From sequence record HM035025: a DNA stretch of 64,000 bases. One strand, written 5' to 3'. A program made the position numbers and the translations under genes. Origin of the DNA: Shigella phage Shfl2. A model generated the notes under the pieces. That model saw nothing but the letters and a program-made list of their open reading frames with translations. It was not told the DNA's origin and did no database searches. Positions 1-56,114 of the stretch are shown here, piece by piece (within the stretch, counting starts at the first letter, position 1; each line of letters starts with the position of its first letter).

Positions 1-238
1 AGTTATCATAATGAAAATATAACATTGTACCAAAGAATGAAAATAATGAAATCGCTATAGTAAAACGAAGTTCACTCCAAACTTCTATTATATTTACTGT
101 GCCGTCAATGTTTAAAATAAGACAGTCAATTAACAATCCAAAAAGACTACCCGCAAGAGCTGCAGCCAACGCCACAGCAAAAATCAAAAATGACTCAGGA
201 AGCGAATATTTGACTTTATTTAGTTTTGGCTTTTGCAT
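1..238 (-). CDS. Membrane protein, N-terminal fragment; gene continues beyond window start
   Basis: Hand translation from ATG at 236-238 gives MQKPKLNKVKYSLPESFLIFAVALAAALAGSLFGLLIDCLIL..., two hydrophobic helices, no stop before position 1. Confidence 0.4.
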   Translation of the reverse strand, partial: MQKPKLNKVKYSLPESFLIFAVALAAALAGSLFGLLIDCLILNIDGTVNIIEVWSELRFTIAISLFSFFGTMLYFHYDN

Positions 239-612
239 CGTGATTCCTTAACAAATTTCATAATTTCATTAAATTCATACATATCAAGTTTAAGCTGATG
301 TTCCTTTTTAATCTTTTTACACTGTGCTTTCCAATCACGTACGCGTTTACGATAATGTCTTCCTTGATACCAGTATCCTACCCAATTTACGGGTACTAAT
401 AAAAGTGGAACTACCAATGGAAGAATTAGCATTAACACAAGTATTTCGCCAGAATCAATATCAGTCATAACATCTAAAACACCTCCAATAATCAATAGAA
501 TTACAAATGATATAAGTATAACAGGACCTATTAATACATCAGTAGAAATTATCTGACGCTTTAATTCATACTTCAAAGGTTTACTTGGAAGGTATAGTGA
601 TGGTTTTGACAT
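220..612 (-). CDS. Small membrane protein, 2 predicted TM helices with basic C-terminal tail (about 130 aa)
   Basis: Track ORF 220..633 begins with TTG; first ATG at 610-612 preceded by AGGA; hydrophobic stretches VLIGPVILISFVILLIIGGVL and ILVLMLILPLVVPLLLVPV. Confidence 0.5.
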   Translation of the reverse strand: MSKPSLYLPSKPLKYELKRQIISTDVLIGPVILISFVILLIIGGVLDVMTDIDSGEILVLMLILPLVVPLLLVPVNWVGYWYQGRHYRKRVRDWKAQCKKIKKEHQLKLDMYEFNEIMKFVKESRCKSQN

Positions 613-1183
613 ATTCTCTGCATTCCTTAACAAATTTTTCTAATAATAAATCGCTTTCAAAATTGGGATTTTCTACGAATTTATCAAAAAGATCATCAAC
701 AATATTCAAGATATTCCTTTTACTAAGAATACGTTTATTTTCATGCTTCGTTTCAGAGTCAACTATAAGAGTAAAGAAATATTTCTTTCCCTGAAATTTT
801 ACCGTAGTATCAATATAAAATAAATTTGACTTTTGTAAATTACGTTTAAACCATGCGTCGCTTAAACTATAAACACCGAGATAATCAAAATCGTCGTTTA
901 AATAACAAACTGACCATTCAGGAGAAACAAAATCAGTAAATTCAACGTCAAAATCACATGTTAATAAATGAATTGATTCAATACTGTTAATAAGTATTCC
1001 AGGACGTATTAAAGACTTTTTACCTCTAGAAAATCTTCCAGAAAGACTTTCATCAGTTTCATATGAAGAACCCCAATAATAATTACGTCCTTCTGCCATA
1101 CGTTTAAGAGCATTTAATAATTGATCTGGAACATCAACCTGTCTTTGGAACTCTTCAAACATTGAATTAAAATCACTTTGCAT
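581..1183 (-). CDS. Hypothetical protein, about 200 aa, soluble
   Basis: Track ORF 581..1189; second ATG at 1181-1183 has better AGGA spacing; 3' end overlaps downstream membrane-protein start by about 30 nt. Confidence 0.5.
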   Translation of the reverse strand: MQSDFNSMFEEFQRQVDVPDQLLNALKRMAEGRNYYWGSSYETDESLSGRFSRGKKSLIRPGILINSIESIHLLTCDFDVEFTDFVSPEWSVCYLNDDFDYLGVYSLSDAWFKRNLQKSNLFYIDTTVKFQGKKYFFTLIVDSETKHENKRILSKRNILNIVDDLFDKFVENPNFESDLLLEKFVKECREYVKTITIPSK

Positions 1184-1210
1184 TTTCATTCCTATTTACT
1201 CTAAGTAATA

Positions 1211-1224
1211 GGGGCCGAAGCCCC
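1211..1224 (-). terminator. GC-rich tetraloop hairpin GGGGC-CGAA-GCCCC, intercistronic
   Basis: Sequence read at 1211-1224; identical copies at 41132 and 62199. Confidence 0.4.
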
Positions 1225-1230
1225 TTATCA

Positions 1231-1824
1231 TTATTTCAGAGAATTAATATATTCCTGAACATCGGCAGAGGTAGTTTCAACCCCAGAAATATTACCATTA
1301 AAGGTTTCAACTCGAGCAAGTGTGTCTTCAATATCAACCTTAGTCAGTGCTGCAATTTCAACTACATCATCGGCAGTACTAATTCCGAGAGCATTTGCTG
1401 CACGAGTTTCACGGATATATTCCAATTTAATTGCAAGTTCTTGGCGAGCATCATCTAACTCAACTACTTTCTTGGCGATTTCAATTCGCATTTCAGCATA
1501 ACCATCAGCTTTAGTAGTCAACTGTTCAGCTGTTCGACGATATAGCAAACCGAGTTTAGCATGCATTGTTACATCTTGACCTTCGGAAAGAAGCTTGCGA
1601 ATTTCACGCTCTTTTGATTCGGCCTGCTTATTCTTTTCGACAATAAGTTCACGAATGCGTTTTTCTTCGTTAATAGATTTAACGGAAGCAGTTTTTAGGT
1701 CTTTAATCTTATCAAGTAGTTTTGCTGCCGCAGCAGTATACTGCTCTTCAACAGATAGATTTTTAGCCATAGCAGAACCAAGTTTAGTGCGAATAAACTC
1801 AACAATTTTCTTCAGTGTGTTCAT
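1231..1824 (-). CDS. Coiled-coil protein with PspA/IM30 (phage shock protein A)-like features, 197 aa
   Basis: Track ORF; ATG at 1822-1824 preceded by AGGAA; long heptad-rich helices; segments such as ARVETFNG and [18 protein letters not shown] resemble PspA helix patterns (recalled, unverified). Confidence 0.5.
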
Positions 1825-1867
1825 AGTATTTCCTTAGGTTAATTAAGATTTAAAATCCACGAGAGTA

Positions 1868-2044
1868 TTATACTCCGGATAGTTTGTAAACTATTTCAAC
1901 ATCGCCTTTTGCTGCTTTATAACCTTCAGCCCAAGATACAACCGAGTTTTTATCCGAAGATTCAAATTCTGGCATTGGGCTTTCGCCAATGTTCACACAA
2001 TATGTTTCTTCATTTTCGTCAAACCAAATAATTAAAGTAGTCAT
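1868..2044 (-). CDS. Small hypothetical protein, 58 aa
   Basis: Hand translation MTTLIIWFDENEETYCVNIGESPMPEFESSDKNSVVSWAEGYKAAKGDVEIVYKLSGV; GGAG RBS before ATG at 2042-2044; below the track size cutoff. Confidence 0.35.
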   Translation of the reverse strand: MTTLIIWFDENEETYCVNIGESPMPEFESSDKNSVVSWAEGYKAAKGDVEIVYKLSGV

Positions 2045-2113
2045 TTATTTCTCCGTTTTCTGTATTTGTTTTGATAAGTCTATAATAACACCGTCCTTGG
2101 TGTTTGTACACAA

Positions 2114-2377
2114 TTATTTCATATTATTGAAATATTCTTCTGCGATTTCATCGTTATCATGGTAAACTTTAGAAGACAGTTTAACATAACCTTCAGCAGT
2201 GAACATGTTAATCACAACCTTTACAGTATACCACTGACCGTCTTCATTACCCATTACTGCGTAAGTTTCAAACATCGGATGATCAGGACCGATAACTTTA
2301 ATATCATTCACCGTACGACCGAAATCTTCTGAAACACATTTCATAAAGAAGTTGAACAGTTCGCCGTAATTATCCAT
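2114..2377 (-). CDS. Hypothetical protein, about 87 aa
   Basis: Track ORF 2114..2389; internal ATG (MDNYGEL) has GGAG at good spacing. Confidence 0.45.
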   Translation of the reverse strand: MDNYGELFNFFMKCVSEDFGRTVNDIKVIGPDHPMFETYAVMGNEDGQWYTVKVVINMFTAEGYVKLSSKVYHDNDEIAEEYFNNMK

Positions 2378-2399
2378 TTCATTCTCCAAGTTGTTTTCT

Positions 2400-2465
2400 G
2401 TATCAGTAGTTGATAGTTGTATAATACCATGGAAGAACAGGGATGTAAACAGTTTTGTGAAAAAA
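2400..2465 (-). promoter_or_regulatory. T4 early (sigma70-like) promoter, GTTTACA -35 and TATTAT -10 on minus strand
   Basis: Reverse complement reads ...ctGTTTACAtccctgttcttccatggTATTATAcaac upstream of ORF starting near 2377. Confidence 0.45.
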
Positions 2466-2580
2466 AATTTTAAAGGTTTTGGGGAATTCTAGGGCAGAGA
2501 GGGGAAATCAAAGGATAGGATAATATATTATAAAGGGTAGAAACTAAATGATGTCTAGAGAGGCCTGGAAAGGCCTAGAT

Positions 2581-2610
2581 ACCAAAAATCCCTATCATTT
2601 AGATAGGGAT
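2581..2610 (-). terminator. Rho-independent terminator after IPIII-like gene
   Basis: 9-bp stem ATCCCTATC/GATAGGGAT with 5-nt loop, followed on minus strand by UUUUGG. Confidence 0.5.
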
Positions 2611-2616
2611 TTAAAA

Positions 2617-3183
2617 TTATTTACCCAGTTTAGTTATTATAGCTTCGGCAGCAGCTTTTAGCTTAGATGCAGTGTTAATACGATTTTTAATTTCAGTATA
2701 CGCATCGCCAAGAACATCAAGGCTATCTGAATAAACACTTACACTATTGCGTTCACTATTTGAAATAGAACCTTTAGTTTTACGATCAAAATCGGTGTAC
2801 ACGTCTTGAAGATCGCGGGCTGCCTTCTTTGCATCATCCAATGCATCAAGAGCTTTATTCAAAGCATTAACATATTTTTTAGTGTCAAACATATTCTTAG
2901 AAATTTTGACGGGTGCGCGTTCAGGAGTAGCTAAGGCAGATTTAGGAAGAACCTGTTTGCCAGATGCCAGTTTCTTAGAAATTTTAAAAAACGCTTTATT
3001 GAAATTATTTTCTTGACTCATCGTAAAAGAACTATTATCAATGTTATACATTTCAATAGCTTTAGCTTTCCACTTAAGAAAATCGCCCCGGTCTTTTGGG
3101 TCCAAGTGGAAGAATACTTTAGTAAGTTCTGCTTCAGATGGTAATTTTGCTGCTTCGGTTAAAAATTCGGCATAGGTTTTCAT
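2617..3183 (-). CDS. Internal head protein with capsid targeting sequence (IPIII-like), 188 aa
   Basis: N-terminus MKTYAEFLTE matches the T4 internal-protein CTS (MKTYQEFIAE, cleaved by gp21 after E); ATG at 3181-3183. Confidence 0.7.
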   Translation of the reverse strand: MKTYAEFLTEAAKLPSEAELTKVFFHLDPKDRGDFLKWKAKAIEMYNIDNSSFTMSQENNFNKAFFKISKKLASGKQVLPKSALATPERAPVKISKNMFDTKKYVNALNKALDALDDAKKAARDLQDVYTDFDRKTKGSISNSERNSVSVYSDSLDVLGDAYTEIKNRINTASKLKAAAEAIITKLGK

Positions 3184-3275
3184 TTAAAATCCTTGAAATA
3201 ATTTATCGGTCGGTTATTAATTATTTATTTATTACTTTGTTATTATCCGTAACAGCATTCTCTATGTGATTCAAA

Positions 3276-3305
3276 CTAAAAAGCCCCAACCTTTCGGTCG
3301 GGGCT
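3276..3305 (-). terminator. Rho-independent terminator at distal end of tRNA/stable-RNA locus
   Basis: Minus strand reads AGCCCCGACC-GAAA-GGUUGGGGCU followed by UUUUU (GNRA tetraloop). Confidence 0.6.
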
Positions 3306-3600
3306 AAGCCTTGCGGCAACCTTGTCGGGGTTCCACCTGCTAAGGCAAGTGTTTGTACGAAACGCCGGGATTCGAACCCGGTTATTAAGCAGTTGACGCT
3401 ACTCAATATTTTTAAAAGGCCATATCTCGACCATATCCGAACGTTCCGTCAAAAACGCTACTCGGCTTATGGCAAAGATATTTCCTCGAATCGATAATTC
3501 GGTGCGCCGTTTCTGCTGTGATAGTAAAGAATCAGAACACAGTAAAACTGTGGGAGAAACTATACTCCAGGGAACATCAGTCCGACGACTTACCGGTAGC
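3306..3600 (-). ncRNA. Putative small stable RNA(s), possibly equivalent to T4 rnaC/rnaD; boundaries uncertain
   Basis: GC-richer non-coding stretch between an ORF and the terminator; tRNA-like T-arm CCGGGTTCGAATCCCGG on minus strand near 3362-3378; motif GAGUAGCGU occurs twice. Confidence 0.3.
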
Positions 3601-3611
3601 GACCCGGCTTC

Positions 3612-3962
3612 TTAATATTCTTTTAAAGCATCAATATGTTCACGGCGTTTACGCCATAAATCAATTGCTTCATACGCGGATTCAACATTTCGAATTGGAC
3701 GGCATTTATATAAAGATTTGTGATTTTGATATTGTGTAGATAACGGAATTTTATCTAAAAGGTCTTTACGTTCAAAATATTCGTAACCATCTAAACCAAA
3801 TGAACGATTTTTGAGAAATTGCCAATGACCATATTCATTTTCAACATAAATATAATCTGCGTGCTGATAAAGCAAATTAATTATACGTTCAGAAATAACA
3901 GTATCATTATGATTAAAATAGAATGTTAAATCATGAACTACTAAATAAACATTACCTTTCAT
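3612..3962 (-). CDS. Hypothetical protein, 116 aa, between tRNA-Arg and stable-RNA region
   Basis: Track ORF 3612..4010 is TTG-initiated and would overlap tRNA-Arg; ATG at 3960-3962 preceded by GAGGAAAAT. Confidence 0.45.
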   Translation of the reverse strand: MKGNVYLVVHDLTFYFNHNDTVISERIINLLYQHADYIYVENEYGHWQFLKNRSFGLDGYEYFERKDLLDKIPLSTQYQNHKSLYKCRPIRNVESAYEAIDLWRKRREHIDALKEY

Positions 3963-3980
3963 ATTTTCCTCACTTATAAT

Positions 3981-4057
3981 TGGTCGAGACAGAAGGATTC
4001 TAACCTTCAACCCACGGATTAGAAGTCCGTTGCTCTATACAATTGAGCTATGCCTCG
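3981..4057 (-). tRNA. tRNA-Arg (anticodon UCU)
   Basis: Hand fold: acceptor CGAGGCA/TGTCTCG, anticodon stem ACGGA/TCCGT, loop CUUCUAA, encoded CCA; T-loop TTAGAAT is atypical. Confidence 0.7.
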
Positions 4058-4061
4058 TATT

Positions 4062-4136
4062 TGGCGGACGTGATAGGATTCGAACCTATAACCAATCGCT
4101 TAACAGGCGATCGCTCTGCCATTGAGCTACACATCC
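4062..4136 (-). tRNA. tRNA-Asn (anticodon GUU)
   Basis: Hand fold: acceptor GGATGTG/CACGTCC, anticodon stem ATCGC/GCGAT, loop CUGUUAA, T-loop TTCGAAT, encoded CCA. Confidence 0.8.
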
Positions 4137-4140
4137 AAAT

Positions 4141-4227
4141 TGGTGGGGAGTGATGGAGTCGAACCACCCGAGTCGCAATGACAATGGATTTACAGTCCAC
4201 ACCGCTACCTCTACGGGATAACTCCCC
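4141..4227 (-). tRNA. tRNA-Tyr (anticodon GUA), long variable arm
   Basis: Hand fold: acceptor GGGGAGT/ACTCCCC, anticodon loop CUGUAAA, long variable arm typical of bacterial-type Tyr, T-loop TTCGACT, encoded CCA. Confidence 0.75.
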
Positions 4228-4236
4228 AAATTAATT

Positions 4237-4311
4237 TGGTGGCCCTGGGTGGAATTGAACCACCATCTGGCGATTATGAGTCGCTTGCTTGAACCTTCCA
4301 GCTACAGGGCC
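4237..4311 (-). tRNA. tRNA with CAU anticodon, probably Ile (lysidine-type) as in T4 tRNA-Ile; Met not excluded
   Basis: Hand fold: acceptor GGCCCTG/CAGGGCC, anticodon loop CUCAUAA, encoded CCA; position corresponds to T4 tRNA-Ile. Confidence 0.7.
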
Positions 4312-4312
4312 T

Positions 4313-4388
4313 TGGTGCTGATTGACGGAATCGAACCGCCGACGTCCTCATTACAAGTGAGGTGCTCTACCTACTGAGCTAAATCAGC
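4313..4388 (-). tRNA. tRNA-Thr (anticodon UGU)
   Basis: Hand fold: acceptor GCTGATT/AATCAGC, anticodon stem CCTCA/TGAGG, loop CUUGUAA, encoded CCA. Confidence 0.8.
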
Positions 4389-4390
4389 AA

Positions 4391-4477
4391 CGGAGGCGAT
4401 AGGATTTGAACCTATGAGTCGCCGGAGCGACTGCCGGTTTTCAAGACCGGTGCATTAAACCACTCTGCCACGCCTCC
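4391..4477 (-). tRNA. tRNA-Ser (anticodon UGA), long variable arm
   Basis: Hand fold: acceptor GGAGGCG/CGCCTCC, anticodon stem CCGGT/ACCGG, loop CUUGAAA, T-loop TTCAAAT; no encoded CCA. Confidence 0.8.
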
Positions 4478-4479
4478 AG

Positions 4480-4553
4480 TCTCCGTGGCAGGATTTGAAC
4501 CTACGACATTCTGCTCCCAAAGCAGACGCTCTACCAAACTGAGCTACACGGAG
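4480..4553 (-). tRNA. tRNA-Pro (anticodon UGG)
   Basis: Hand fold: acceptor CTCCGTG/CACGGAG, anticodon stem TCTGC/GCAGA, loop UUUGGGA, T-loop TTCAAAT; no encoded CCA. Confidence 0.8.
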
Positions 4554-4563
4554 TAAATTAAAT

Positions 4564-4637
<74 letters not shown>

Positions 4638-4642
4638 AAATT

Positions 4643-4729
4643 TGGTGCGAGAAGTGGGACTCGAACCCACAAGGAAATCATTCCGCAGCATTTTAAGTGC
4701 TGTGCCTTTACCAATTTGGCCATTCTCGC
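4643..4729 (-). tRNA. tRNA-Leu (anticodon UAA), long variable arm
   Basis: Hand fold: acceptor GCGAGAA/TTCTCGC, anticodon stem CAGCA/TGCTG, loop CUUAAAA, T-loop TTCGAGT, encoded CCA. Confidence 0.8.
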
Positions 4730-4730
4730 G

Positions 4731-4803
4731 CTGGGAATAAAGGACTCGAACCTTTGCATCCTGGAATCAAAATCCAGTGCCTTACCAACTTGGCTAATTC
4801 CCA
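4731..4803 (-). tRNA. tRNA-Gln (anticodon UUG)
   Basis: Hand fold: acceptor TGGGAAT/ATTCCCA, anticodon stem CTGGA/TCCAG, loop UUUUGAU, T-loop TTCGAGT; no encoded CCA; abuts tRNA-Leu as in the T4 Gln-Leu pair. Confidence 0.8.
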
Positions 4804-4900
4804 ATTATTAACAAAGGCTCTCTAACAAGAACCCTTGATGATAGAGGGTATTAATCAGTGCGGTATGAGTTAATAATAACAAATAATTCTTAAAGCATAT

Positions 4901-5188
4901 TTACCATTTATGATGATACATACTTACGATGCATTCAAGACCCAAAGGATTCTTGAAAATATCATATTCAAGAGGACCTTTTTCTGTTTCAATAAAGAAA
5001 TCAAAATTTACTGTATTAAATTTACGGTCTTCCTTTACTAATTTAACTTGAGAAGATGAACGGTCAATGTAAACCTTTTCAACTTCAAAACATGTTAAAA
5101 TGCCATAATCATCGATCAAGGCTTTAGCTGCTTCTTGATCATATTTATATCCATTTTCAATGGATGATACTTTCGCATAAAGAATCAT
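4901..5188 (-). CDS. Hypothetical protein, 95 aa, third gene of early operon in IPI locus
   Basis: Track ORF; ATG at 5186-5188 with AGAGG RBS inside upstream gene; 2-nt gap to upstream stop. Confidence 0.5.
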   Translation of the reverse strand: MILYAKVSSIENGYKYDQEAAKALIDDYGILTCFEVEKVYIDRSSSQVKLVKEDRKFNTVNFDFFIETEKGPLEYDIFKNPLGLECIVSMYHHKW

Positions 5189-5190
5189 TA

Positions 5191-5601
5191 TCAGCCTCTA
5201 TCAACGATAGTATGAGTATGGGCATTTACGATTTGCCACCAGTCGAAACGATTGGAACCATAATCTGGTTTATTTTCATTTTCTTTAATGATATCACGCA
5301 GCTTATCTTCTGTTTCAGCATACGCAATTAAATCATCATACCCACCGCAAGGATAATAATTATCACCTGCGAATAAAAGAAAATTTACCTTAGATGGATT
5401 TACGTAATAATGGTCTTTAGGATATTTAGTTCCTCTCCAATCAGTTACTTCAACATAACGGTAAGAAAATCCATTTTTACTTTCAATCCAACTCCACGCT
5501 TCAAAAGGAGTATTAAAAACTCTATCAGGTATTAAATTACCTTCAAAATGAGAAGGATTTGCATAATCCCCGGCATAAACATAATATTCGTTAATACTCA
5601 T
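5191..5601 (-). CDS. Hypothetical protein, 136 aa, Tyr/Trp-rich
   Basis: Track ORF; ATG at 5599-5601 with GGTGA RBS; adjacent to upstream stop. Confidence 0.55.
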   Translation of the reverse strand: MSINEYYVYAGDYANPSHFEGNLIPDRVFNTPFEAWSWIESKNGFSYRYVEVTDWRGTKYPKDHYYVNPSKVNFLLFAGDNYYPCGGYDDLIAYAETEDKLRDIIKENENKPDYGSNRFDWWQIVNAHTHTIVDRG

Positions 5602-5787
5602 TTATTCACCTTTAGAAATTTTATCCATAACGATAGCGATTAAACCAATTAAAAATGCTACTACAAGTGAAAACACATTTTCTGTTGTAGTTAATAATCC
5701 GCATATAAATCCAGCAAACATTGAAAAACTAAAAGCGGAAGCAGAAATTGCAATAGCAACATTTCGAATTAATTCACAACGTTTCAT
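5602..5787 (-). CDS. Small membrane protein, 61 aa, 2 predicted TM helices
   Basis: Track ORF; ATG at 5785-5787 with GAGGAG RBS; hydrophobic AIAISASAFSFSMFAGFICGLL and FSLVVAFLIGLIAIVM. Confidence 0.5.
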   Translation of the reverse strand: MKRCELIRNVAIAISASAFSFSMFAGFICGLLTTTENVFSLVVAFLIGLIAIVMDKISKGE

Positions 5788-5799
5788 TTTATTCTCCTC

Positions 5800-5855
5800 A
5801 GTAGTTGATAGGGTAATAGTATCACAACTAAAACCCTATGTAAACAACTTTGTGA
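5800..5855 (-). promoter_or_regulatory. T4 early promoter (GTTTACA -35, TACTAT -10) with inverted repeat ATAGGGT/ACCCTAT bracketing the -10
   Basis: Reverse complement reads aaagttGTTTACAtagggttttagttgtgaTACTATtaccctat; inverted repeat at 5808-5839. Confidence 0.5.
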
Positions 5856-5857
5856 AA

Positions 5858-6115
5858 TTATTTTAAATCTTCTAATCGTTTCTTCATCTTAGAACCGTTC
5901 TTAGCGATTTCGCCTGCATCAGAGCATAATGCTAAAAGCGCTTTAACTTTAGTTTGGTCTCCTTTAAAAGATGAAGGATCGACTGCAGCAGCAAGTTCTT
6001 TAATACGAGAAAAAAGACGCTCAGCTTCAGCTAAAGCCATTCCAAGTTTTACTTCCATACCGTGGGAAGATTCAGTGATAGTAGTTTTTGTAGCAAACTC
6101 TTTGAAAGTTTTCAT
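5858..6115 (-). CDS. Internal head protein with capsid targeting sequence, IPI-locus variant, 85 aa
   Basis: N-terminus MKTFKEFATK...ITE matches the T4 IP CTS; sits at the T4 ipI position upstream of 57B; sequence differs from my recollection of T4 IPI. Confidence 0.65.
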   Translation of the reverse strand: MKTFKEFATKTTITESSHGMEVKLGMALAEAERLFSRIKELAAAVDPSSFKGDQTKVKALLALCSDAGEIAKNGSKMKKRLEDLK

Positions 6116-6124
6116 TTTATTTTC

Positions 6125-6185
6125 CTAATTAATTTTGATGAGGTAATAGTATCACTACCTCATCAGCATGTAAACAACTTTGTGA
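6125..6185 (-). promoter_or_regulatory. T4 early promoter with 10-bp inverted repeat TGATGAGGTA/TACCTCATCA around the -10
   Basis: Reverse complement reads aaagttGTTTACAtgctgatgaggtagtgaTACTATtacctcatca; inverted repeat at 6135-6164. Confidence 0.5.
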
Positions 6186-6187
6186 AA

Positions 6188-6884
<697 letters not shown>

Positions 6885-6885
<1 letters not shown>

Positions 6886-7610
6886 TATAGTACCTTTAGT
6901 GTATTTTTAATTTTAGAAAAAAGTTCTTCAAGAGAACCATCGTTTGTAATTACTAAATCGCCATCACGAATTGGCAATCCAGCTTCTGTAATATGTGTAT
7001 CATTGGATTTTTGACCAGGACGAACTACATGAATTACTGTAGCACCCATCGCCCTAGCCGCATCCATTTCATGATCTTGACGGGTATCAGGAACGATATA
7101 ATAATCATAACCTGAGTTAAATTTATCAAGATAATCTAAAGCAAATAATTTTACCCAATACATGCGGTCGAAGTTATTAACAATCAAATCCGTACCTAGG
7201 GCTTGCATCAGACGACGGACTGACCATTGATCTTCAATATTATTTATAACGTCAATAATCTTGTTAAATGCTACGGAATTAACTGATTCTTGTCCTTCGT
7301 CATCAAAAACAAACACACCCTTAATTGGGCTTTTACCATTAAGATAGCAAAATGCTTGTTCCATAATCGTGATTACTTCTGATTTAGTCAGATTTAAATT
7401 AGTCTCACGATCATAGTCAATTCCTTCAAACTCTTTACGAGTTAAGCAAGGATAGTCAGTGTTTTCTGCAAATACTCCCCATGCATAAGCCAATGCATCC
7501 TTAATAGGACCAGCAAGTTGGTATTTAACTGCAGAATAATTGCTCATGATAAAATCAGCAGTAGTATCTTTTCCACTACGCTTTACACCACTTAAAAAGA
7601 TTAGTTTCAT
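6885..7610 (-). CDS. 1: Gp1 deoxynucleoside monophosphate kinase, 241 aa
   Basis: Length and N-terminal P-loop-like SGVKRSGKDT match T4 gp1; synteny. Confidence 0.9.
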
Positions 7611-7659
7611 ATGTTTCTCCTCAAATTTAGTTAAGATTATAACACATGAAACTGAAGCA

Positions 7660-8190
7660 TTAAACTTCTGCTATAATTTTGCCATCTTTTTCTACTTGAA
7701 AATACGTATAAGGAATCGTTGCTGTGCATACTAAGGCTGGGTCTGAATCTTCCGTGTAGCTAAATTCTACTTCAGACAGGTCAGAAACCCAAGGCTTATA
7801 AAAATTTATTGACATCACGATTTCAGTTTTACTATTATCTAAAATGTAAAGCGTAATGTATTCAGGACCTGTTTTTTGGGCAGTATTTTCGCCTGTAAGA
7901 TAGTTACTAGTTCCTAGCATCCATTCATACATTCCTATCCACGACTTAAGCTCTTCATCAACTATAAATCTCACGATGAGTGGGTCGTACTCAAATGTAA
8001 CACCTGGACGTTGTGCTCGGCCTAGTCCAAACGGCCCAGTCACGGTATCAATAACAGGTATCCTAATTCCCGGAATAGGAACTGACTGAGCATTTAAAGT
8101 AAAAGCGGATGTAGTATTACTATGCGGTATTGATACTACAAAGTTAGTTGTATTTGCTTGGTTAAAAATTTGTTGTAGTGCTTGCGACAT
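7660..8190 (-). CDS. 3: Gp3 tail completion / tube terminator protein, 176 aa
   Basis: Track ORF 7660..8271 is TTG-initiated; ATG at 8188-8190 with GAGGA RBS gives 176 aa, the T4 gp3 length. Confidence 0.85.
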   Translation of the reverse strand: MSQALQQIFNQANTTNFVVSIPHSNTTSAFTLNAQSVPIPGIRIPVIDTVTGPFGLGRAQRPGVTFEYDPLIVRFIVDEELKSWIGMYEWMLGTSNYLTGENTAQKTGPEYITLYILDNSKTEIVMSINFYKPWVSDLSEVEFSYTEDSDPALVCTATIPYTYFQVEKDGKIIAEV

Positions 8191-10211: not shown

Positions 10212-11922
10212 TAACCTTAATTGGTTTGTTGGTGTTGTTGAAGATAGAATGGACCCGTTAAAATTAGGTCGTGTTCGTGTTCGTGTGGTTGGTTTGCATC
10301 CACCTCAAAGAGCACAAGGTGATGTAATGGGTATTCCAACTGAAAAATTACCATGGATGTCAGTTATTCAACCTATAACTTCTGCAGCAATGTCAGGAAT
10401 TGGAGGTTCTGTTACTGGACCGGTAGAAGGAACTAGAGTTTATGGTCATTTTTTGGACAAATGGAAAACTAACGGAATTGTCCTTGGCACGTATGGTGGA
10501 ATAGTTCGCGAAAAACCGAATAGACTTGAAGGATTTTCTGACCCAACTGGGCAGTATCCTAGACGTTTAGGAAATGATACTAACGTACTAAACCAAGGCG
10601 GAGAAGTAGGATATGATTCGTCTTCTAACGTTATCCAAGATAGTAACTTAGACACCGCAATAAATCCCGATGATAGACCACTATCAGAGATTCCAACTGA
10701 TGATAATCCAAATATGTCAATGGCTGAAATGCTTCGCCGTGATGAAGGATTAAGACTAAAAGTTTATTGGGATACTGAAGGATATCCGACAATTGGCATT
10801 GGTCATCTTATCATGAAGCAGCCAGTTCGTGATATGGCTCAAATTAATAAAGTTTTATCGAAACAAGTTGGTCGTGAAATTACTGGAAACCCAGGTTCTA
10901 TTACAATGGAAGAAGCGACGACTTTATTTGAGCGTGATTTGGCTGATATGCAACGTGATATTAAATCACATTCTAAAGTAGGACCAGTCTGGCAAGCTGT
11001 CAACCGTTCTCGCCAAATGGCATTAGAAAATATGGCATTTCAGATGGGTGTTGGCGGTGTAGCTAAATTTAACACAATGTTAACTGCTATGTTAGCAGGA
11101 GATTGGGAAAAAGCATATAAAGCCGGTCGTGATTCATTGTGGTATCAACAAACAAAAGGCCGTGCATCTCGTGTTACCATGATTATTCTTACAGGGAATT
11201 TGGAATCATACGGTATTGAAGTGAAAACGCCGGCTAGGTCTTTGTCTGCAATGGCTGCTACTGTAGCAAAGTCTTCTGATCCAGCTGACCCTCCTATTCC
11301 GAATGATTCGAGAATTTTATTTAAAGAACCTGTTTCTTCATATAAAGGTGAATATCCGTATGTTCACACAATGGAAACTGAAAGCGGTCATATTCAGGAA
11401 TTTGACGATACCCCGGGACAAGAACGATACAGATTAGTTCATCCGACTGGAACATATGAGGAAGTATCACCGTCAGGAAGAAGAACAAGAAAAACTGTTG
11501 ATAATTTGTATGATATAACAAATGCTGATGGTAATTTTTTGGTAGCTGGCGATAAAAAGACTAACGTCGGTGGGTCAGAAATTTATTACAACATGGATAA
11601 TCGTCTCCACCAAATAGATGGAAGCAATACAATATTTGTACGTGGCGATGAAACTAAGACAGTTGAAGGTAATGGAACTATCCTAGTCAAAGGTAATGTT
11701 ACTATTGTAGTTGAAGGTAATGCTGACATTACAGTTAAAGGAGATGCTACCACTTTAGTTGAAGGTAATCAAACTAACACAGTAAATGGAAATCTTTCTT
11801 GGAAAGTTGCTGGGACAGTTGATTGGGACGTTGGTGGTGATTGGACAGAAAAAATGGCATCTATGAGTTCTATTTCATCTGGTCAATACACAATTGATGG
11901 ATCGAGGATTGACATTGGCTAA
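10195..11922 (+). CDS. 5: Gp5 baseplate hub subunit and tail lysozyme, 575 aa
   Basis: Contains lysozyme motif LRLKVYWDTEGYPTIGIGHL and C-terminal VxGxxxxx beta-helix repeats; length matches T4 gp5. Confidence 0.95.
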   Translation: MEMISNNLNWFVGVVEDRMDPLKLGRVRVRVVGLHPPQRAQGDVMGIPTEKLPWMSVIQPITSAAMSGIGGSVTGPVEGTRVYGHFLDKWKTNGIVLGTYGGIVREKPNRLEGFSDPTGQYPRRLGNDTNVLNQGGEVGYDSSSNVIQDSNLDTAINPDDRPLSEIPTDDNPNMSMAEMLRRDEGLRLKVYWDTEGYPTIGIGHLIMKQPVRDMAQINKVLSKQVGREITGNPGSITMEEATTLFERDLADMQRDIKSHSKVGPVWQAVNRSRQMALENMAFQMGVGGVAKFNTMLTAMLAGDWEKAYKAGRDSLWYQQTKGRASRVTMIILTGNLESYGIEVKTPARSLSAMAATVAKSSDPADPPIPNDSRILFKEPVSSYKGEYPYVHTMETESGHIQEFDDTPGQERYRLVHPTGTYEEVSPSGRRTRKTVDNLYDITNADGNFLVAGDKKTNVGGSEIYYNMDNRLHQIDGSNTIFVRGDETKTVEGNGTILVKGNVTIVVEGNADITVKGDATTLVEGNQTNTVNGNLSWKVAGTVDWDVGGDWTEKMASMSSISSGQYTIDGSRIDIG

Positions 11923-34453: not shown

Positions 34454-34454
<1 letters not shown>

Positions 34455-34687
34455 TGGAAGGTTTAATTGAAGCTATTAAATCAAACGACCTCGTAGCCGC
34501 TCGTAAATTATTTGCTGAAGCCATGGCTGCAAGAACGATTGATTTAATTAAAGAAGAAAAAATCGCTATCGCTCGTAATTTCTTAATCGAAGGTGAAGAA
34601 CCTGAAGACGAGGATGATGACGAAGATAGTGATGATAAAGACGACAAAAAAGACAAAGACTCTGACGAAGACGAGGATGATGAATAA
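34454..34687 (+). CDS. 67: Gp67 prohead core protein with acidic C-terminal tail, 77 aa
   Basis: Position and poly-D/E tail as in T4 gp67. Confidence 0.85.
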
Positions 34688-35112
34688 TGCTTCTGATCCC
34701 TGAAACTCATGAATTAGTTCTCGAGAATGTCGAAGCACTTATTCCTGAAGCACAGGGTCGCTTTGACGAATTGTCTTCTGCTTTAAATAAAGACGATATA
34801 AATACAATTGTCGAGAATATGCTTGATGATGAAACTGATTTAGCAGTTGCATTAGCTTCTATTAATGAAAATATGCCGTTAAATGAATTCATTGTTAAGC
34901 ATGTTTCAGCTCGTGGTGAAATTACACGTACTAAAGACCGCAAAACGCGCGAACGTAATGCATTTCAAACCACTGGGCTGTCTAAAGCAAAACGTAGACA
35001 AATTGCTCGCAAAGCTACCAAAACGAAGATTGCCAATCCAGCAGGTCAATCTCGTGCTCAGCGTAAGCGTAAAAAAGCTCTTAAACGCCGTAAAGCATTA
35101 GGATTAAGCTAA
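34687..35112 (+). CDS. 68: Gp68 prohead core protein, 141 aa
   Basis: Length and synteny match T4 gp68. Confidence 0.85.
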
Positions 35113-35750
35113 TGAATGAACCCCAATTACTAATTGAAACTTGGGGTCAACCTGGCGAAATTATTGATGGCGTGCCAATGCTTGAATCTCATGATGGAAA
35201 AGACCTAGGTTTAAAACCTGGTTTATACATCGAAGGAATATTCATGCAAGCGGAAGTCGTCAATAGAAATAAACGTCTTTATCCAAAACGCATATTAGAA
35301 AAAGCGGTAAAAGACTATATCAATGAGCAAGTTTTAACTAAACAAGCTCTCGGAGAATTAAATCATCCTCCACGCGCTAATGTTGACCCGATGCAAGCCG
35401 CTATCATTATAGAAGATATGTGGTGGAAAGGAAATGACGTATACGGACGAGCTCGTGTTATTGAAGGTGACCATGGTCCTGGAGATAAATTAGCAGCTAA
35501 TATTCGTGCCGGATGGATTCCAGGAGTTTCTTCTCGTGGATTAGGTTCATTGACTGACACAAATAAAGGTTATCGTATCGTAAACGAAGGATTCAAATTA
35601 ACTGTAGGTGTTGATGCAGTATGGGGTCCAAGTGCTCCAGATGCATGGGTAACTCCTAAGGAAATTACCGAATCACAGACGGCGGAAGCCGATACAAGTG
35701 CCGATGACGCCTATATGGCTCTCGCAGAGGCCATGAAAAAAGCGTTATAA
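35112..35750 (+). CDS. 21: Gp21 prohead core scaffold protease, 212 aa
   Basis: Length and synteny match T4 gp21. Confidence 0.9.
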   Translation: MNEPQLLIETWGQPGEIIDGVPMLESHDGKDLGLKPGLYIEGIFMQAEVVNRNKRLYPKRILEKAVKDYINEQVLTKQALGELNHPPRANVDPMQAAIIIEDMWWKGNDVYGRARVIEGDHGPGDKLAANIRAGWIPGVSSRGLGSLTDTNKGYRIVNEGFKLTVGVDAVWGPSAPDAWVTPKEITESQTAEADTSADDAYMALAEAMKKAL

Positions 35751-35780
35751 ATATTATTATCTAAACAACAGGACTACAAA

Positions 35781-36590
35781 ATGCTTAAAGAACAACTGAT
35801 TGCTGAAGCGCAAAAAATTGATGCTTCCGTTGCTCTTGATAGTATTTTCGAATCAGTTAATATTTCTCCGGAAGCAAAAGAAACTTTCGGCACTGTATTC
35901 GAAGCTACCGTCAAGCAGCACGCCGTTAAATTAGCTGAATCTCATATCGCTAAAATTGCTGAAAAAGCAGAAGAAGAAGTAGAAAAAAATAAAGAAGAAG
36001 CCGAAGAAAAAGCTGAGAAGAAAATCGCTGAGCAAGCTTCTAAATTCATCGACCATCTTGCGAAAGAATGGCTCGCCGAAAATAAATTAGCAGTTGATAA
36101 AGGCATCAAAGCCGAACTGTTTGAATCCATGCTTGGTGGATTAAAAGAGCTCTTTGTTGAACACAACGTTGTTGTTCCAGAAGAATCAGTTGATGTTGTA
36201 GCTGAAATGGAAGAAGAGCTGCAAGAACATAAAGAAGAATCAGCTCGTCTGTTCGAAGAACTCAATAAGCGTGACGCATATATCAATTATGTGCAGCGTG
36301 AAGTGGCATTGAGCGAAAGTACTAAAGATCTGACTGAGTCTCAAAAAGAAAAAGTCTCTGCTCTGGTCGAAGGTATGGATTATTCAGATGAATTCTCAAG
36401 TAAATTGAGTGCCATCGTAGAAATGGTGAAGAAGTCTAATAAAGATGAAAGCACTATTACTGAGGGTATAAATACTCCTGATACTGAAGCAGCCGGACTG
36501 AATTTCGTCACTGAAGCTGTAGAAGATAAAGCTGCACCTGGTGCAGAAGATATTGTAAGTGTATATGCGAAAGTCGCATCTCGTTTCTAA
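35781..36590 (+). CDS. 22: Gp22 major prohead scaffold core protein, 269 aa
   Basis: Acidic coiled-coil-rich protein; length matches T4 gp22. Confidence 0.9.
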   Translation: MLKEQLIAEAQKIDASVALDSIFESVNISPEAKETFGTVFEATVKQHAVKLAESHIAKIAEKAEEEVEKNKEEAEEKAEKKIAEQASKFIDHLAKEWLAENKLAVDKGIKAELFESMLGGLKELFVEHNVVVPEESVDVVAEMEEELQEHKEESARLFEELNKRDAYINYVQREVALSESTKDLTESQKEKVSALVEGMDYSDEFSSKLSAIVEMVKKSNKDESTITEGINTPDTEAAGLNFVTEAVEDKAAPGAEDIVSVYAKVASRF

Positions 36591-43022: not shown

Positions 43023-43640
43023 ATGTACCACTTTGTATATGAAACAACAAATCTAATAAATGGTAAAAAGTATATAGGAAAACACTCTACTGATGACTTG
43101 AATGATGGTTACCTTGGTTCCGGTAAGGCAATTCAGCAGGCTATAAAGAAATATGGTGAAAACAATTTCTCTAGAACAATACTAAAAGAGTTTAAAACTT
43201 CCGAAGAAGCGTACATGTATGAAGAAGAAATTATAACTCCTGAAATAATAAAAAGCAAAAATTATTATAATATGAAACCTGGTGGAATTGGTGGAATTGT
43301 TATGACTACAGAGGTTATAGCAAAGATGAAAGAATCTTCCGCTAAGAGATTTGAAAACTCACCGGGCACGGTATTAGGTACAACTTGTTACACTAATGGA
43401 ACTAAAAATATTTTTATTAAGCCTGGAGAACTTGTTCCAGAAGGATTTGTAAAAGGGATGGTTCATCCTAATAGAAAGTCCAGAAAAGGATGTAAAGTCA
43501 AACCGACTACCACAGGAACTTTTTGGGTCAATAATGGTGCAATAAATAAATTAATACAACCAGACGGTATTATTCCCGACGGATTTATTAAAGGTCGTCT
43601 CATGAAAAGAGATTCTAAAGGCAAATTTAGTAAGGCATAA
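43023..43640 (+). CDS. segD: SegD GIY-YIG homing endonuclease, 205 aa
   Basis: GIY-YIG-type N-terminus (KKYIGKH...YLGSG); position between inh and uvsW as in T4. Confidence 0.85.
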   Translation: MYHFVYETTNLINGKKYIGKHSTDDLNDGYLGSGKAIQQAIKKYGENNFSRTILKEFKTSEEAYMYEEEIITPEIIKSKNYYNMKPGGIGGIVMTTEVIAKMKESSAKRFENSPGTVLGTTCYTNGTKNIFIKPGELVPEGFVKGMVHPNRKSRKGCKVKPTTTGTFWVNNGAINKLIQPDGIIPDGFIKGRLMKRDSKGKFSKA

Positions 43641-54056: not shown

Positions 54057-56114
54057 CTACATCTTGAACTTTTTAGACATTCCGTTGATGTTAACCAAAG
54101 AAGCCAAGATTTGAGAAACTTCGTTTTCCTCTTCTTTTGATTCTTCTACAAGGAATTGATTAAACCCAGCCATTGGACGAACTTCACCAGTTTCCATCAG
54201 ATGATCGCCATCATATACCGATTCTTCTAATTGTTCAGAAGGAGGAACGATTGTGCCTTCGATTAGATACTTGTTATAAGCAGTTTCTTTCATCATGTAC
54301 GTGCTTACTTTATTAATCTTCAACAAAATTCCACGCGGTAAAATAACTTCAGCTTCTGATGGAAATCCTGATAAATGACCTGGAACGATAACTTTGATTC
54401 GCTCAGCCCCTTTAATTACCATACCTACGCTAGTTTCAGCATCTTCATTAGCATATGCAGAATGACTACCCATATGCATTAAATCTTCAGCATCAACGGA
54501 ACCTTCTCCTTCACCAGAAAATACTGCACCGGAATCATCTAGAGCCATATAGTTTTTACCATGCTCACCGAAGATATTTGGTTTAAGCGATGTTGATACG
54601 AAGTTCTTGAAATAGAACATTTTATTTTCAATATTATGACGTAAAGTTTTAAAGGTAACTTCTTGTCCACGGTAAAGTGTAGTTCCCGGAGGAAGAACTG
54701 ATCCTTTGGCGAATGCAGAATCCAGCGTCTCGATGTGTTTAATAGCTCGTTCCATGTATTCTTCACGGGTAGAATCTGGTTTACCCAAGAGGAACGAGTT
54801 CATTTCAACATATGAATCTGCACAATAATCTTCAATTACATCAGACTCAGCCTGAGTCAGTCCTTTTGGAGTTACTTCGGTGCTTGCGTATTCATATGCC
54901 TGAGCAGCAGATTCATTAATCAATTTATAAATGCCATTCATGACAAATTGAATAATAGCTACCTTTTCGTCTGGCGTGGCTTTAGAACCTTTAACTAAAT
55001 CATTGATAATTTTCTTAATAATATCAAAGCTATTAGAAATATTAATGTCAGCGAGATCGCTCAAAATTTTATCGGTTTTATAATCAAAGAATTCTTTATT
55101 CTTTAAATATTCTTGAGAACCTTGATATGTTATATCGCTCTGCAGCTTGATAGATGGATCACGTAAACGTGCATGGGCCAATGCAATATGATTTCGGAAG
55201 CTTTCTAGTTCATAATCATTAGATTTAAAACGAGAAGCACTCCTCATACCACCGATAGCTCCTTTGCCGAAGTTTGAACCAATCTGAATAACGCCAGAGT
55301 TCATTGGTCCTTCTGCTTTATATACCGGAACTTTAGATTCAAACTCTTGATATTTCTTAGCGGCGAAGCTATCACCCTGAAGTGAAGCATCGACAGTAGA
55401 ATATTGAGCTTGTGCTGCTAATCGACGACTAATTTTAGTTTTCTGAATAACAGCTTGATCCGTGCGCTTATCATTTTCTAGAGCAATAGAAGCGGCAACA
55501 GCAACAGCTTTAGGAACAGCATTACCTGTTTTAACGTCTACATAAACATCACCAACCTTTGATTCAACTTTTGTGAATAACTCAGTTGAAATAGGAGGTA
55601 CACCTGGAATGTCTTCTAAATTAGCATTTTTACGATAAACCATAATATATGCATACTTTTTATCATAGTCCCAGATTTCCTTTAAAAGAACATATCGACC
55701 TGCTCCTTTAGTACGTACTAAACGGTCAGCAATAACTTGCATTTGACGAGCAGCGCCATTTGTTTTACTTTTTAGTACGCGGAATAGGCATGCGTCAATT
55801 TTATACTGTTTCATTGTTTGAAGAGCAGTATCAAAAACCGCATTAATGACACCAATTGGATTTCCACCCAAGTTTTTAAGTTTAACTAATGATAGTTTCT
55901 CATTAACACCTATCATTACGATATGCATCATTTTATCGCCTGGCTTAACGTTTTTATTTGTATCACCGCCAGAGGTGTATGTACAAAATCTAAATCCAGG
56001 AAGCACACTTTCTTCACCGGCTTGAATAGCAAAAATTTGAGGTATTTTATGCTTAGGATTTAAGTTAACAACCGGCGCCGAAGCGCCGTCAAATAATTCT
56101 GTAATAAGTTCCAT
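54057..56114 (-). CDS. alt.-2: Alt-paralogue ADP-ribosyltransferase, 685 aa (probable T4 alt.-2 equivalent)
   Basis: N-terminus MELITELFDGASAPVVNLNPKHKIPQIF parallels Alt; C-terminal ART R-S-E motifs (YRGQ, STSL, EAEVILPRG). Confidence 0.75.
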   Translation of the reverse strand: MELITELFDGASAPVVNLNPKHKIPQIFAIQAGEESVLPGFRFCTYTSGGDTNKNVKPGDKMMHIVMIGVNEKLSLVKLKNLGGNPIGVINAVFDTALQTMKQYKIDACLFRVLKSKTNGAARQMQVIADRLVRTKGAGRYVLLKEIWDYDKKYAYIMVYRKNANLEDIPGVPPISTELFTKVESKVGDVYVDVKTGNAVPKAVAVAASIALENDKRTDQAVIQKTKISRRLAAQAQYSTVDASLQGDSFAAKKYQEFESKVPVYKAEGPMNSGVIQIGSNFGKGAIGGMRSASRFKSNDYELESFRNHIALAHARLRDPSIKLQSDITYQGSQEYLKNKEFFDYKTDKILSDLADINISNSFDIIKKIINDLVKGSKATPDEKVAIIQFVMNGIYKLINESAAQAYEYASTEVTPKGLTQAESDVIEDYCADSYVEMNSFLLGKPDSTREEYMERAIKHIETLDSAFAKGSVLPPGTTLYRGQEVTFKTLRHNIENKMFYFKNFVSTSLKPNIFGEHGKNYMALDDSGAVFSGEGEGSVDAEDLMHMGSHSAYANEDAETSVGMVIKGAERIKVIVPGHLSGFPSEAEVILPRGILLKINKVSTYMMKETAYNKYLIEGTIVPPSEQLEESVYDGDHLMETGEVRPMAGFNQFLVEESKEEENEVSQILASLVNINGMSKKFKM

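Follow-up and report, generated by a model that had tools for sequence, protein, structure and literature searches.

What kind of gene is the 188-aa reading frame that adjoins the tRNA and stable-RNA locus of this T4-like phage DNA, and how did it come to lie there? The preliminary description of the window (the whole 64-kb stretch of DNA analyzed here) took the product, ORF188, to be an IPIII-like internal protein, set beside the tRNAs through the loss or relocation of gene e and e.1 to e.8, or else by an indel in an otherwise T4-collinear region.

ORF188 and its neighborhood

The reading frame and its CTS start, MKTYAEFLTE, were confirmed by the ORF call, the translation and a comparison of leaders: ORF188 opens with an ATG, and its N terminus reads MKTYAEFLTEAAK (Table 1). 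The window is Tequatrovirus DNA: its positions 1-8000 show 93-96% nucleotide identity to hundreds of T4-like coliphages, and the ORF188 product matches Shfl2p135 of Shigella phage Shfl2 at every residue (100% identity). A tblastn search of 50,697 phage records found ORF188 in 163, every match being at least 85% identical and none falling below 85%. As the preliminary description had allowed, close relatives share the arrangement and have it annotated; the 163 phages include RB14 and RB69 (in the latter as a frameshifted copy), and the annotation is "hypothetical protein" only. Indeed, all 60 sampled records give ORF188 this name or an equally uninformative one, and none of the 60 calls it an internal protein. 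The RB14 annotation uses the names Ip4 and Ip5, yet ORF188 is listed there as "ncORF136c hypothetical protein." PHROGs assigns the protein to phrog_2280, of unknown function, and sequence and profile searches of Pfam and the PDB returned no informative family. A match to cytochrome b562 was rejected as subthreshold (17.7 bits against a cutoff of 30). In the literature searched, we found neither a mention of the ORF188 locus tags nor virion proteomics or N-terminal sequencing of the product, phages that carry ORF188 included.

Table 1. Positions of ORF188, its flanking features and related genes (window coordinates unless stated)
Feature	Position	Strand	Remarks
e.3 (partial), e.4, e.5, e.6	2-1824	-	tblastn with T4 proteins, 82-99% identity
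e.3, first 79 aa	2-238	-	cut by window edge; 82% identity to T4 (tblastn)
e.4	223-612	-	92% identity to T4 (tblastn)
e.5	584-1189	-	97% identity to T4 (tblastn)
e.6	1234-1824	-	99% identity to T4 (tblastn)
e.8	2114-2389	-	first gene downstream of cassette; 98.9% identical to T4 e.8
e.8, tblastn extent	2117-2377	-	99% identity to T4
Degenerate second hairpin	2578-2616	-	CCCTATCTAAATGATAGGG + ATTTTTGGTATCT; right cassette boundary, just after ORF188 stop (terminator scan)
ORF188	2617-3183	-	CTS-bearing protein; = Shfl2p135, RB14ncORF136c, RB69ORF148c/149c
CTS, codons 1-10 of ORF188	3154-3183	-	MKTYAEFLTE; ends LTE10↓A, predicted gp21 cleavage site
Upstream part of cassette	3184-3274	-	late-type motifs and AAGGA
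rnaC terminator hairpin	3275-3305	-	AGCCCCGACCGAAAGGTTGGGGCT + TTTTT; left cassette boundary; sequence identical to T4 hairpin
rnaC (species 1 stable RNA)	3356-3494	-	139 nt; 97.8% identical to T4 rnaC
rnaD (species 2 stable RNA), variant form	3501-3612	-	77% identical to T4 rnaD; 96-99% to KarlGJung, CT01
tRNA array, 10 genes	3981-4803	-	tRNA-Asn and tRNA-Tyr where T4 has the segB homing endonuclease
Gene 21, prohead protease	35112-35747	+	99.5% identical to T4 gp21
ORF157 (RB32ORF132c family / bas37_0244)	KarlGJung L002 8310-8783	-	157 aa; starts MKSYTQFLNE

The T4 e-gene cluster, described as absent, is in fact present, with e.3 (partial), e.4, e.5, e.6 and e.8 occupying positions 2-2389 at 82-99% identity to T4. 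Gene e itself escapes notice because the window starts inside e.3, an edge-of-window artifact. It lies beyond the left edge, and each of the six relatives with sequence extending to it (RB14, KarlGJung, ESh28, EP01, UFV13 and OMNI12, from which the left flank of the gene order was taken) has it 1.2-1.6 kb further left. The order in these six phages is e, nudE, e.2, e.3, e.4 and so on to e.8, followed by ORF188, the stable RNAs and the tRNAs. The suggestion that the endolysin is kept elsewhere is not borne out, as relatives retain e at its usual place. Within the window, the only T4-lysozyme similarity is the lysozyme domain of gp5, at 10714-11211. The e.8 gene has a conserved early-type promoter (TTTACA, 17 nt, TATTAT, at 2449-2421; promoter scan), and the e.8-side spacer is 90% identical to that of T4. 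Only T4 e.7 has been replaced; in its place, between e.6 and e.8, stands an unrelated ORF of 58 aa (1868-2044, minus strand; phrog_5461), which also occurs in RB14 and RB69 and which the RB14 annotation likens to RB69ORF145c.

On the other side of ORF188 lies a T4-type tRNA/rnaD/rnaC block, closed by the rnaC terminator. This hairpin, a stem at 3305-3282 with 10 pairs (7 of them G-C) followed by TTTTT, was scored as a strong intrinsic terminator in the terminator scan. Its presence beside the ORF had been described correctly, but the distance from the end of its T-run to the ORF188 ATG is 94 nt rather than about 120 nt. The rnaC and rnaD genes were identified by alignment to T4; an Rfam search returned tRNAs only, rnaC and rnaD matching no Rfam family. 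A 116-aa ORF (3612-3962, minus strand; phrog_3355, function unknown), homologous to RB69ORF150c, lies between tRNA-Arg and rnaD. T4 is without a gene at this site, and the ORF co-occurs with the variant rnaD. The window has one segB-like sequence only, located at 43023-43607 (33% identity).

The terminator upstream of ORF188 makes read-through into the gene unlikely. The consensus of T4 late promoters is TATAAATA. Upstream of ORF188, two overlapping AATAAATA motifs (3233-3222, minus strand), each matching seven of the eight consensus positions, are located 38-42 nt ahead of the start codon; a ribosome-binding site, AAGGA (3194-3190), precedes the gene. One AATAAATA copy is conserved in KarlGJung despite differing flanking bases. 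There is no perfect TATAAATA upstream of ORF188, and the promoter scan found no consensus T4 early-type (GTTTAC) promoter there. A MotA-box-like sequence, TGCTGTTA, was rejected for its wrong spacing. We infer that AATAAATA may act as the ORF188 promoter; the late transcription that this would imply would fit a component of the prohead.

The ORF188 cassette and its relatives

The spacer between rnaC and e.8 is 284 nt long in T4. Spacer positions 1-81 align to 3355-3275 of the window and positions 54-284 to 2608-2378; thus, the window contains ~666 bp (2609-3274) that are extra relative to T4. The indel that had been suspected in this T4-collinear region therefore exists, but it is a different one, a cassette in the e.8-rnaC spacer that T4 lacks. 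The overlap of the two alignments, T4 spacer positions 54-81, corresponds to the terminator hairpin with its T-run and aligns at both cassette boundaries. Collinearity with T4 resumes at the degenerate hairpin that follows the ORF188 stop. In KarlGJung, three copies of the hairpin (repeat family D1) bracket two tandem CTS cassettes, one with ORF188 and the other with a 157-aa gene, ORF157. Recombination between hairpins can explain the gain and loss of the ORF188 cassette.

The states of the site were read from a spacer-region search with 707 matching records, about a quarter of which (163) carry ORF188; ORF157 is found in 512 phage records. The site is empty in T4 and RB7 (about 556 bp), holds ORF188 only in this window, ESh28 and EP01, and in other records holds either ORF157 only (about 1.1 kb) or both genes (about 1.8 kb). 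ORF157 resembles ORF188 in its CTS, in its Pro/Ala/Lys linker and in forming a hairpin-bounded cassette in the same spacer, but differs in having another N-domain and a perfect TATAAATA upstream, and in being more widespread. In an hhalign profile comparison, the C terminus of ORF157 weakly matched the C-terminal hairpin of the ORF188 family (probability of 79%), which only suggests that the two genes may be old paralogs.

ORF188 is under purifying selection, with dN/dS values of 0.00-0.12 in 10 pairwise comparisons among five phages. The amino acids of the leader are identical in all five, and the UFV13 protein is 99.5% identical to that of the window. Two copies are damaged or shortened. In RB69, a 1-nt deletion shifts the frame and splits the gene into ORF149c and ORF148c. 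The CT01 copy (L006 4001-4489) has lost 78 nt in frame, precisely the segment encoding the predicted linker; this deletion falls between repeats that in the window are 14-nt perfect direct repeats (2894-2907 and 2972-2985). The frameshifted RB69 copy and the linker-less CT01 copy indicate that ORF188 is dispensable in some backgrounds.

When 1.84 billion representative proteins were scanned exhaustively with HMMER, a single distant relative of ORF188 emerged, P0013, with 31% identity across the matched region and 28-29% in family alignments. A search from P0013 added eight further relatives, which are 18-29% identical to ORF188. All of the distant homologs start with M-x-x-F-x-[EQD]-[FI]-x-x-E, a CTS-like sequence, and nine residues of the N-domain are invariant across homologs (T21, K22, R32, D34, K37, Y46, I48, A64 and F65). 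In the homologs, the Pro/Ala/Lys-rich linker varies in length, and the C-terminal regions are of at least two types. The gene adjoining P0013 on a 2.6-kb metagenomic contig of a T4-like phage (L004; 2092-2526, plus strand) encodes an ART-PolyVal ADP-ribosyltransferase that also starts with a CTS, MITFKQFLNE; from its sequence, this protein would be a small packaged ART.

In Enterobacter phage KMB17 (Karamvirus), the ORF188 homolog is located just after the tRNA array and immediately before homologs of e.8 (38% identical) and e.6 (54%). With protein identity at about 25%, its occurrence at the same position in another genus speaks for ORF188 as an old resident of the site. The empty spacer of T4 is probably a loss, by deletion between hairpins. 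The comparison of the window with RB69 (Mosigvirus, L005) points to recent movement as well. Specifically, the two DNAs are 91% identical at the nucleotide level in the 58-aa ORF, 95% in e.8, 95% in ORF188 and 99% in rnaC, compared to 66-79% in e.5, e.6, 57B and 57A (66-80% for the flanking genes overall), indicating that ~1.6 kb (1868-3494) moved between genera recently.

Leader, predicted structure and candidate role

The first residues of ORF188 follow the leader pattern of the Ip class, M-K-T-(Y/F)-x-E-F-(I/L)-x-E, over ~10 residues. MKTYAEFLTE matches the T4 IPII/IPIII leader, MKTYQEFIAE, at 7 of 10 residues and the leader of RB14 Ip4 at 8 of 10. The motif [LI]-x-E occurs a single time in the protein, at residue 10, and the next residue is small (LTE10↓A). 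Cleavage by gp21 is predicted after Glu10; the neo-N-terminal peptide of the processed protein would then be AAKLPSEAELTK, with Ala11 first, and the mature form (residues 11-188) has a predicted mass of 19.8 kDa, a pI of 9.5 and a Lys content of 14%. When the six-frame translation of the whole 64 kb was scanned with a loose CTS pattern, M..[YF].[EQ]F[LIVAT].[EK], three occurrences were found. Two of these begin complete ORFs at internal-protein positions, namely ORF188 and an Ip5-type gene at 5858-6115, and the third is at the C-terminal end of a long ORF that resembles Alt. On this pattern evidence, the N-terminal motif of ORF188 is more than a chance match.

In T4, CTS proteins are substrates of the gp21 protease. 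The gp67, gp68, gp21 and gp22 proteins encoded at 34454-36587 are 95-100% identical to those of T4, and the machinery that recognizes the leader is therefore that of T4. ORF188 also behaves as an accessory gene, like those of the Ip class, being variably present among close relatives and located in a hotspot. Together, these data suggest that ORF188 is probably an unnamed internal protein of the T4 Ip class that is packaged and processed by gp21. The class itself is known, and the sequence has already been deposited as hypothetical. The route that we infer for the product comprises packaging, cleavage and injection. MKTYAEFLTE, acting as a CTS, would bring the protein into the prohead scaffolding core of gp22, gp67 and gp68. 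The gp21 cut after Glu10 (L-T-E↓A) would leave a basic, lysine-rich protein of 19.8 kDa among the packaged DNA, and the mature protein would be ejected into the cell along with that DNA. Once injected, it would neutralize a host defense that acts on the incoming glucosyl-hmC DNA.

Two AlphaFold models of ORF188, with mean pLDDT values of 68.7 and 76.0 (the latter with a 12-sequence alignment), have similar folds. The models predict helices at residues 17-26, 35-46 and 55-73, disorder at about 79-91 and an antiparallel helical hairpin formed by residues 102-136 and 142-187. The predicted layout thus starts with a small, conserved N-domain of helices (17-73), continues with a flexible Pro/Ala/Lys linker (about 77-97) and ends in a long C-terminal hairpin (101-187), which differs between lineages of the family. 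A Foldseek search of the PDB with the ORF188 model gave nothing at E ≤ 0.001, and in BFVD the matches were confined to its own family plus a single protein from Yersinia phage fHe-Yen9-01 (21% identity). As modeled, ORF188 folds into a generic helical hairpin, with neither a functional pointer nor enzyme-like features.

The T4 proteins Ip1, Ip2 and Ip3 are injected inhibitors, each of a distinct GmrSD type IV restriction enzyme; the Ips have only their leader sequence in common, and the T4 ip genes occupy two loci (PMC12373910). Because Ip1, Ip2 and Ip3 each block a different GmrSD, we propose an anti-defense role for ORF188, to which, by this analogy, we would give a little less than an even chance. 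A target of the GmrSD type is a more tentative proposal and, also judged by analogy, a rather unlikely one. For ip4-10, no reproducible target was identified among five additional GmrSD systems active against T-even phages (PMC12373910), and hence not every Ip need inhibit GmrSD.

The main alternative to an injected counter-defense protein, although unlikely, is that ORF188 is packaged but serves in bulk, as a counter-ion or spacer for the condensed DNA or as an aid to ejection, with no specific host target. Its pI of 9.5 and 14% lysine, which are similar to those of IPIII, would suit such a role, as would the generic, non-enzyme-like fold of the models, and within the T4 head, internal-protein lysines are in contact with the phosphates of the DNA (PMC3012670). 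However, nine invariant N-domain residues in homologs that are only 18-29% identical suggest a specific interaction. Moreover, presence in about a quarter of relatives combined with exchange between genera is the pattern of an accessory gene in an arms race, and all three characterized T4 Ips have specific targets (PMC12373910).

It is improbable that ORF188 is not packaged at all and acts in the cytoplasm, its CTS-like start being a relic of recombination among the 5' ends of ip genes. These genes do share 5' sequence able to mediate recombination. Yet the leader has been kept in 18-29% identical homologs of other genera, where similarity at the DNA level is gone, the cleavage motif occurs once only, precisely at residue 10, and the strong purifying selection extends over the leader codons, which specify the same amino acids in five of five phages.

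Returning to the reading of ORF188 as an injected Ip-class protein, a broader proposal, which is speculative and may well prove wrong, is that the e.8-rnaC spacer forms a third, unrecognized internal-protein hotspot of the Tevenvirinae. The ORF188 family would then be an ancient, modular injected effector, in which the N-domain would serve packaging, DNA association or ejection and, beyond the linker, an exchangeable C-terminal hairpin would set the host target. If this were true, ORF188 and its possible paralog ORF157 would form a pool of candidate anti-defense proteins, perhaps directed against defenses beyond the GmrSD variants that have been screened. Since T4 Ip1 to Ip3 are all injected GmrSD inhibitors, the search for new counter-defense proteins can naturally turn to the other Ip genes. 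ORF157, like ORF188, is filed as "hypothetical" in every sampled record, and the site is empty in T4. The two genes represent candidate injected effectors in 163 (ORF188) and 512 (ORF157) sequenced phages, among them many therapy candidates, and the hairpin-bounded cassette would offer a simple route for the gain, loss and passage of such genes between genera. The interest of ORF188 is nevertheless modest: it is a useful candidate for anti-defense screens, not a surprise.

Relation to ipIII and the other internal proteins

The description of ORF188 as IPIII-like, and as an ipIII orthologue that came to lie beside the tRNAs because e and e.1 to e.8 were deleted or moved, can be given practically no credence: the two proteins are similar in length (188 vs. 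193 aa), charge and N-terminal leader, but BLASTP aligns only residues 1-12 of ORF188 with T4 IPIII, the ORF188 and IPIII profiles give an hhalign probability of 8% over the leader only, e.3 to e.8 are located directly downstream of ORF188 in the window, relatives keep e at the usual place, and EP01 and UFV13 have a true ipIII in addition to ORF188. In those two phages, ipIII (93-94% identical to T4) is found near vs.8, denV and e, and the coexistence of the two genes also excludes the idea that ORF188 replaces IPIII. The ipIII locus extends from denV/ipII to e, while ORF188 lies in the spacer between e.8 and rnaC. RB14, KarlGJung, ESh28 and OMNI12 carry ORF188 and are without both ipII and ipIII. 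Thus, Ip repertoires are combinatorial, each phage having between three and seven genes with a leader, spread over three loci.

What ORF188 does share with IPIII (Ip3) is the CTS, alike in pattern and ten residues long, with its L/I-x-E motif at residue 10, and a nearly matching composition: IPIII has a mass of 20.4 kDa, a pI of 9.65 and 13.5% Lys, compared to 19.8 kDa, 9.5 and 14% for mature ORF188. Both are nonessential and variably present. The target of Ip3 is the ECOR17 GmrS1/GmrSD2 system (PMC12373910). With Ip1 (IPI*) and Ip2, ORF188 would have in common the logic of delivery, as judged from its leader (CTS, gp21 processing and coinjection), and the status of an accessory gene in a variable hotspot, whereas the sequences are unrelated. 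In structure, the 76-residue IPI* is described in a review as a compact alpha/beta protein, while ORF188 is predicted to be all-helical with two domains.

Ip4 to Ip10 of the T-even phages were named through their shared N-terminal signal, and ORF188 is recognized likewise, by its leader alone. BLASTP comparison of ORF188 with RB14 Ip4 and with ORF157 did not support homology, as the leader alone aligned. The separation of ORF188 by sequence applies to IPIII and Ip4, the Ip6-10 sequences standing outside the comparison. The other two loci are where Ip5 (ipI locus) and Ip4 (next to e) are found.

In the window, T4 IPI has no match anywhere in the 64 kb, and the ipI locus (5858-6115, minus strand) is taken by the Ip5-type gene, which encodes 85 aa starting MKTFKEFATK. 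The Alt-like ORF (an Alt call made from sequence only) begins at about 56117, and its last ~38 residues (54057-54173, minus strand) contain the leader-like sequence MAGFNQFLVEE, with an L-V-E site; this may be a C-terminal processing or targeting element.
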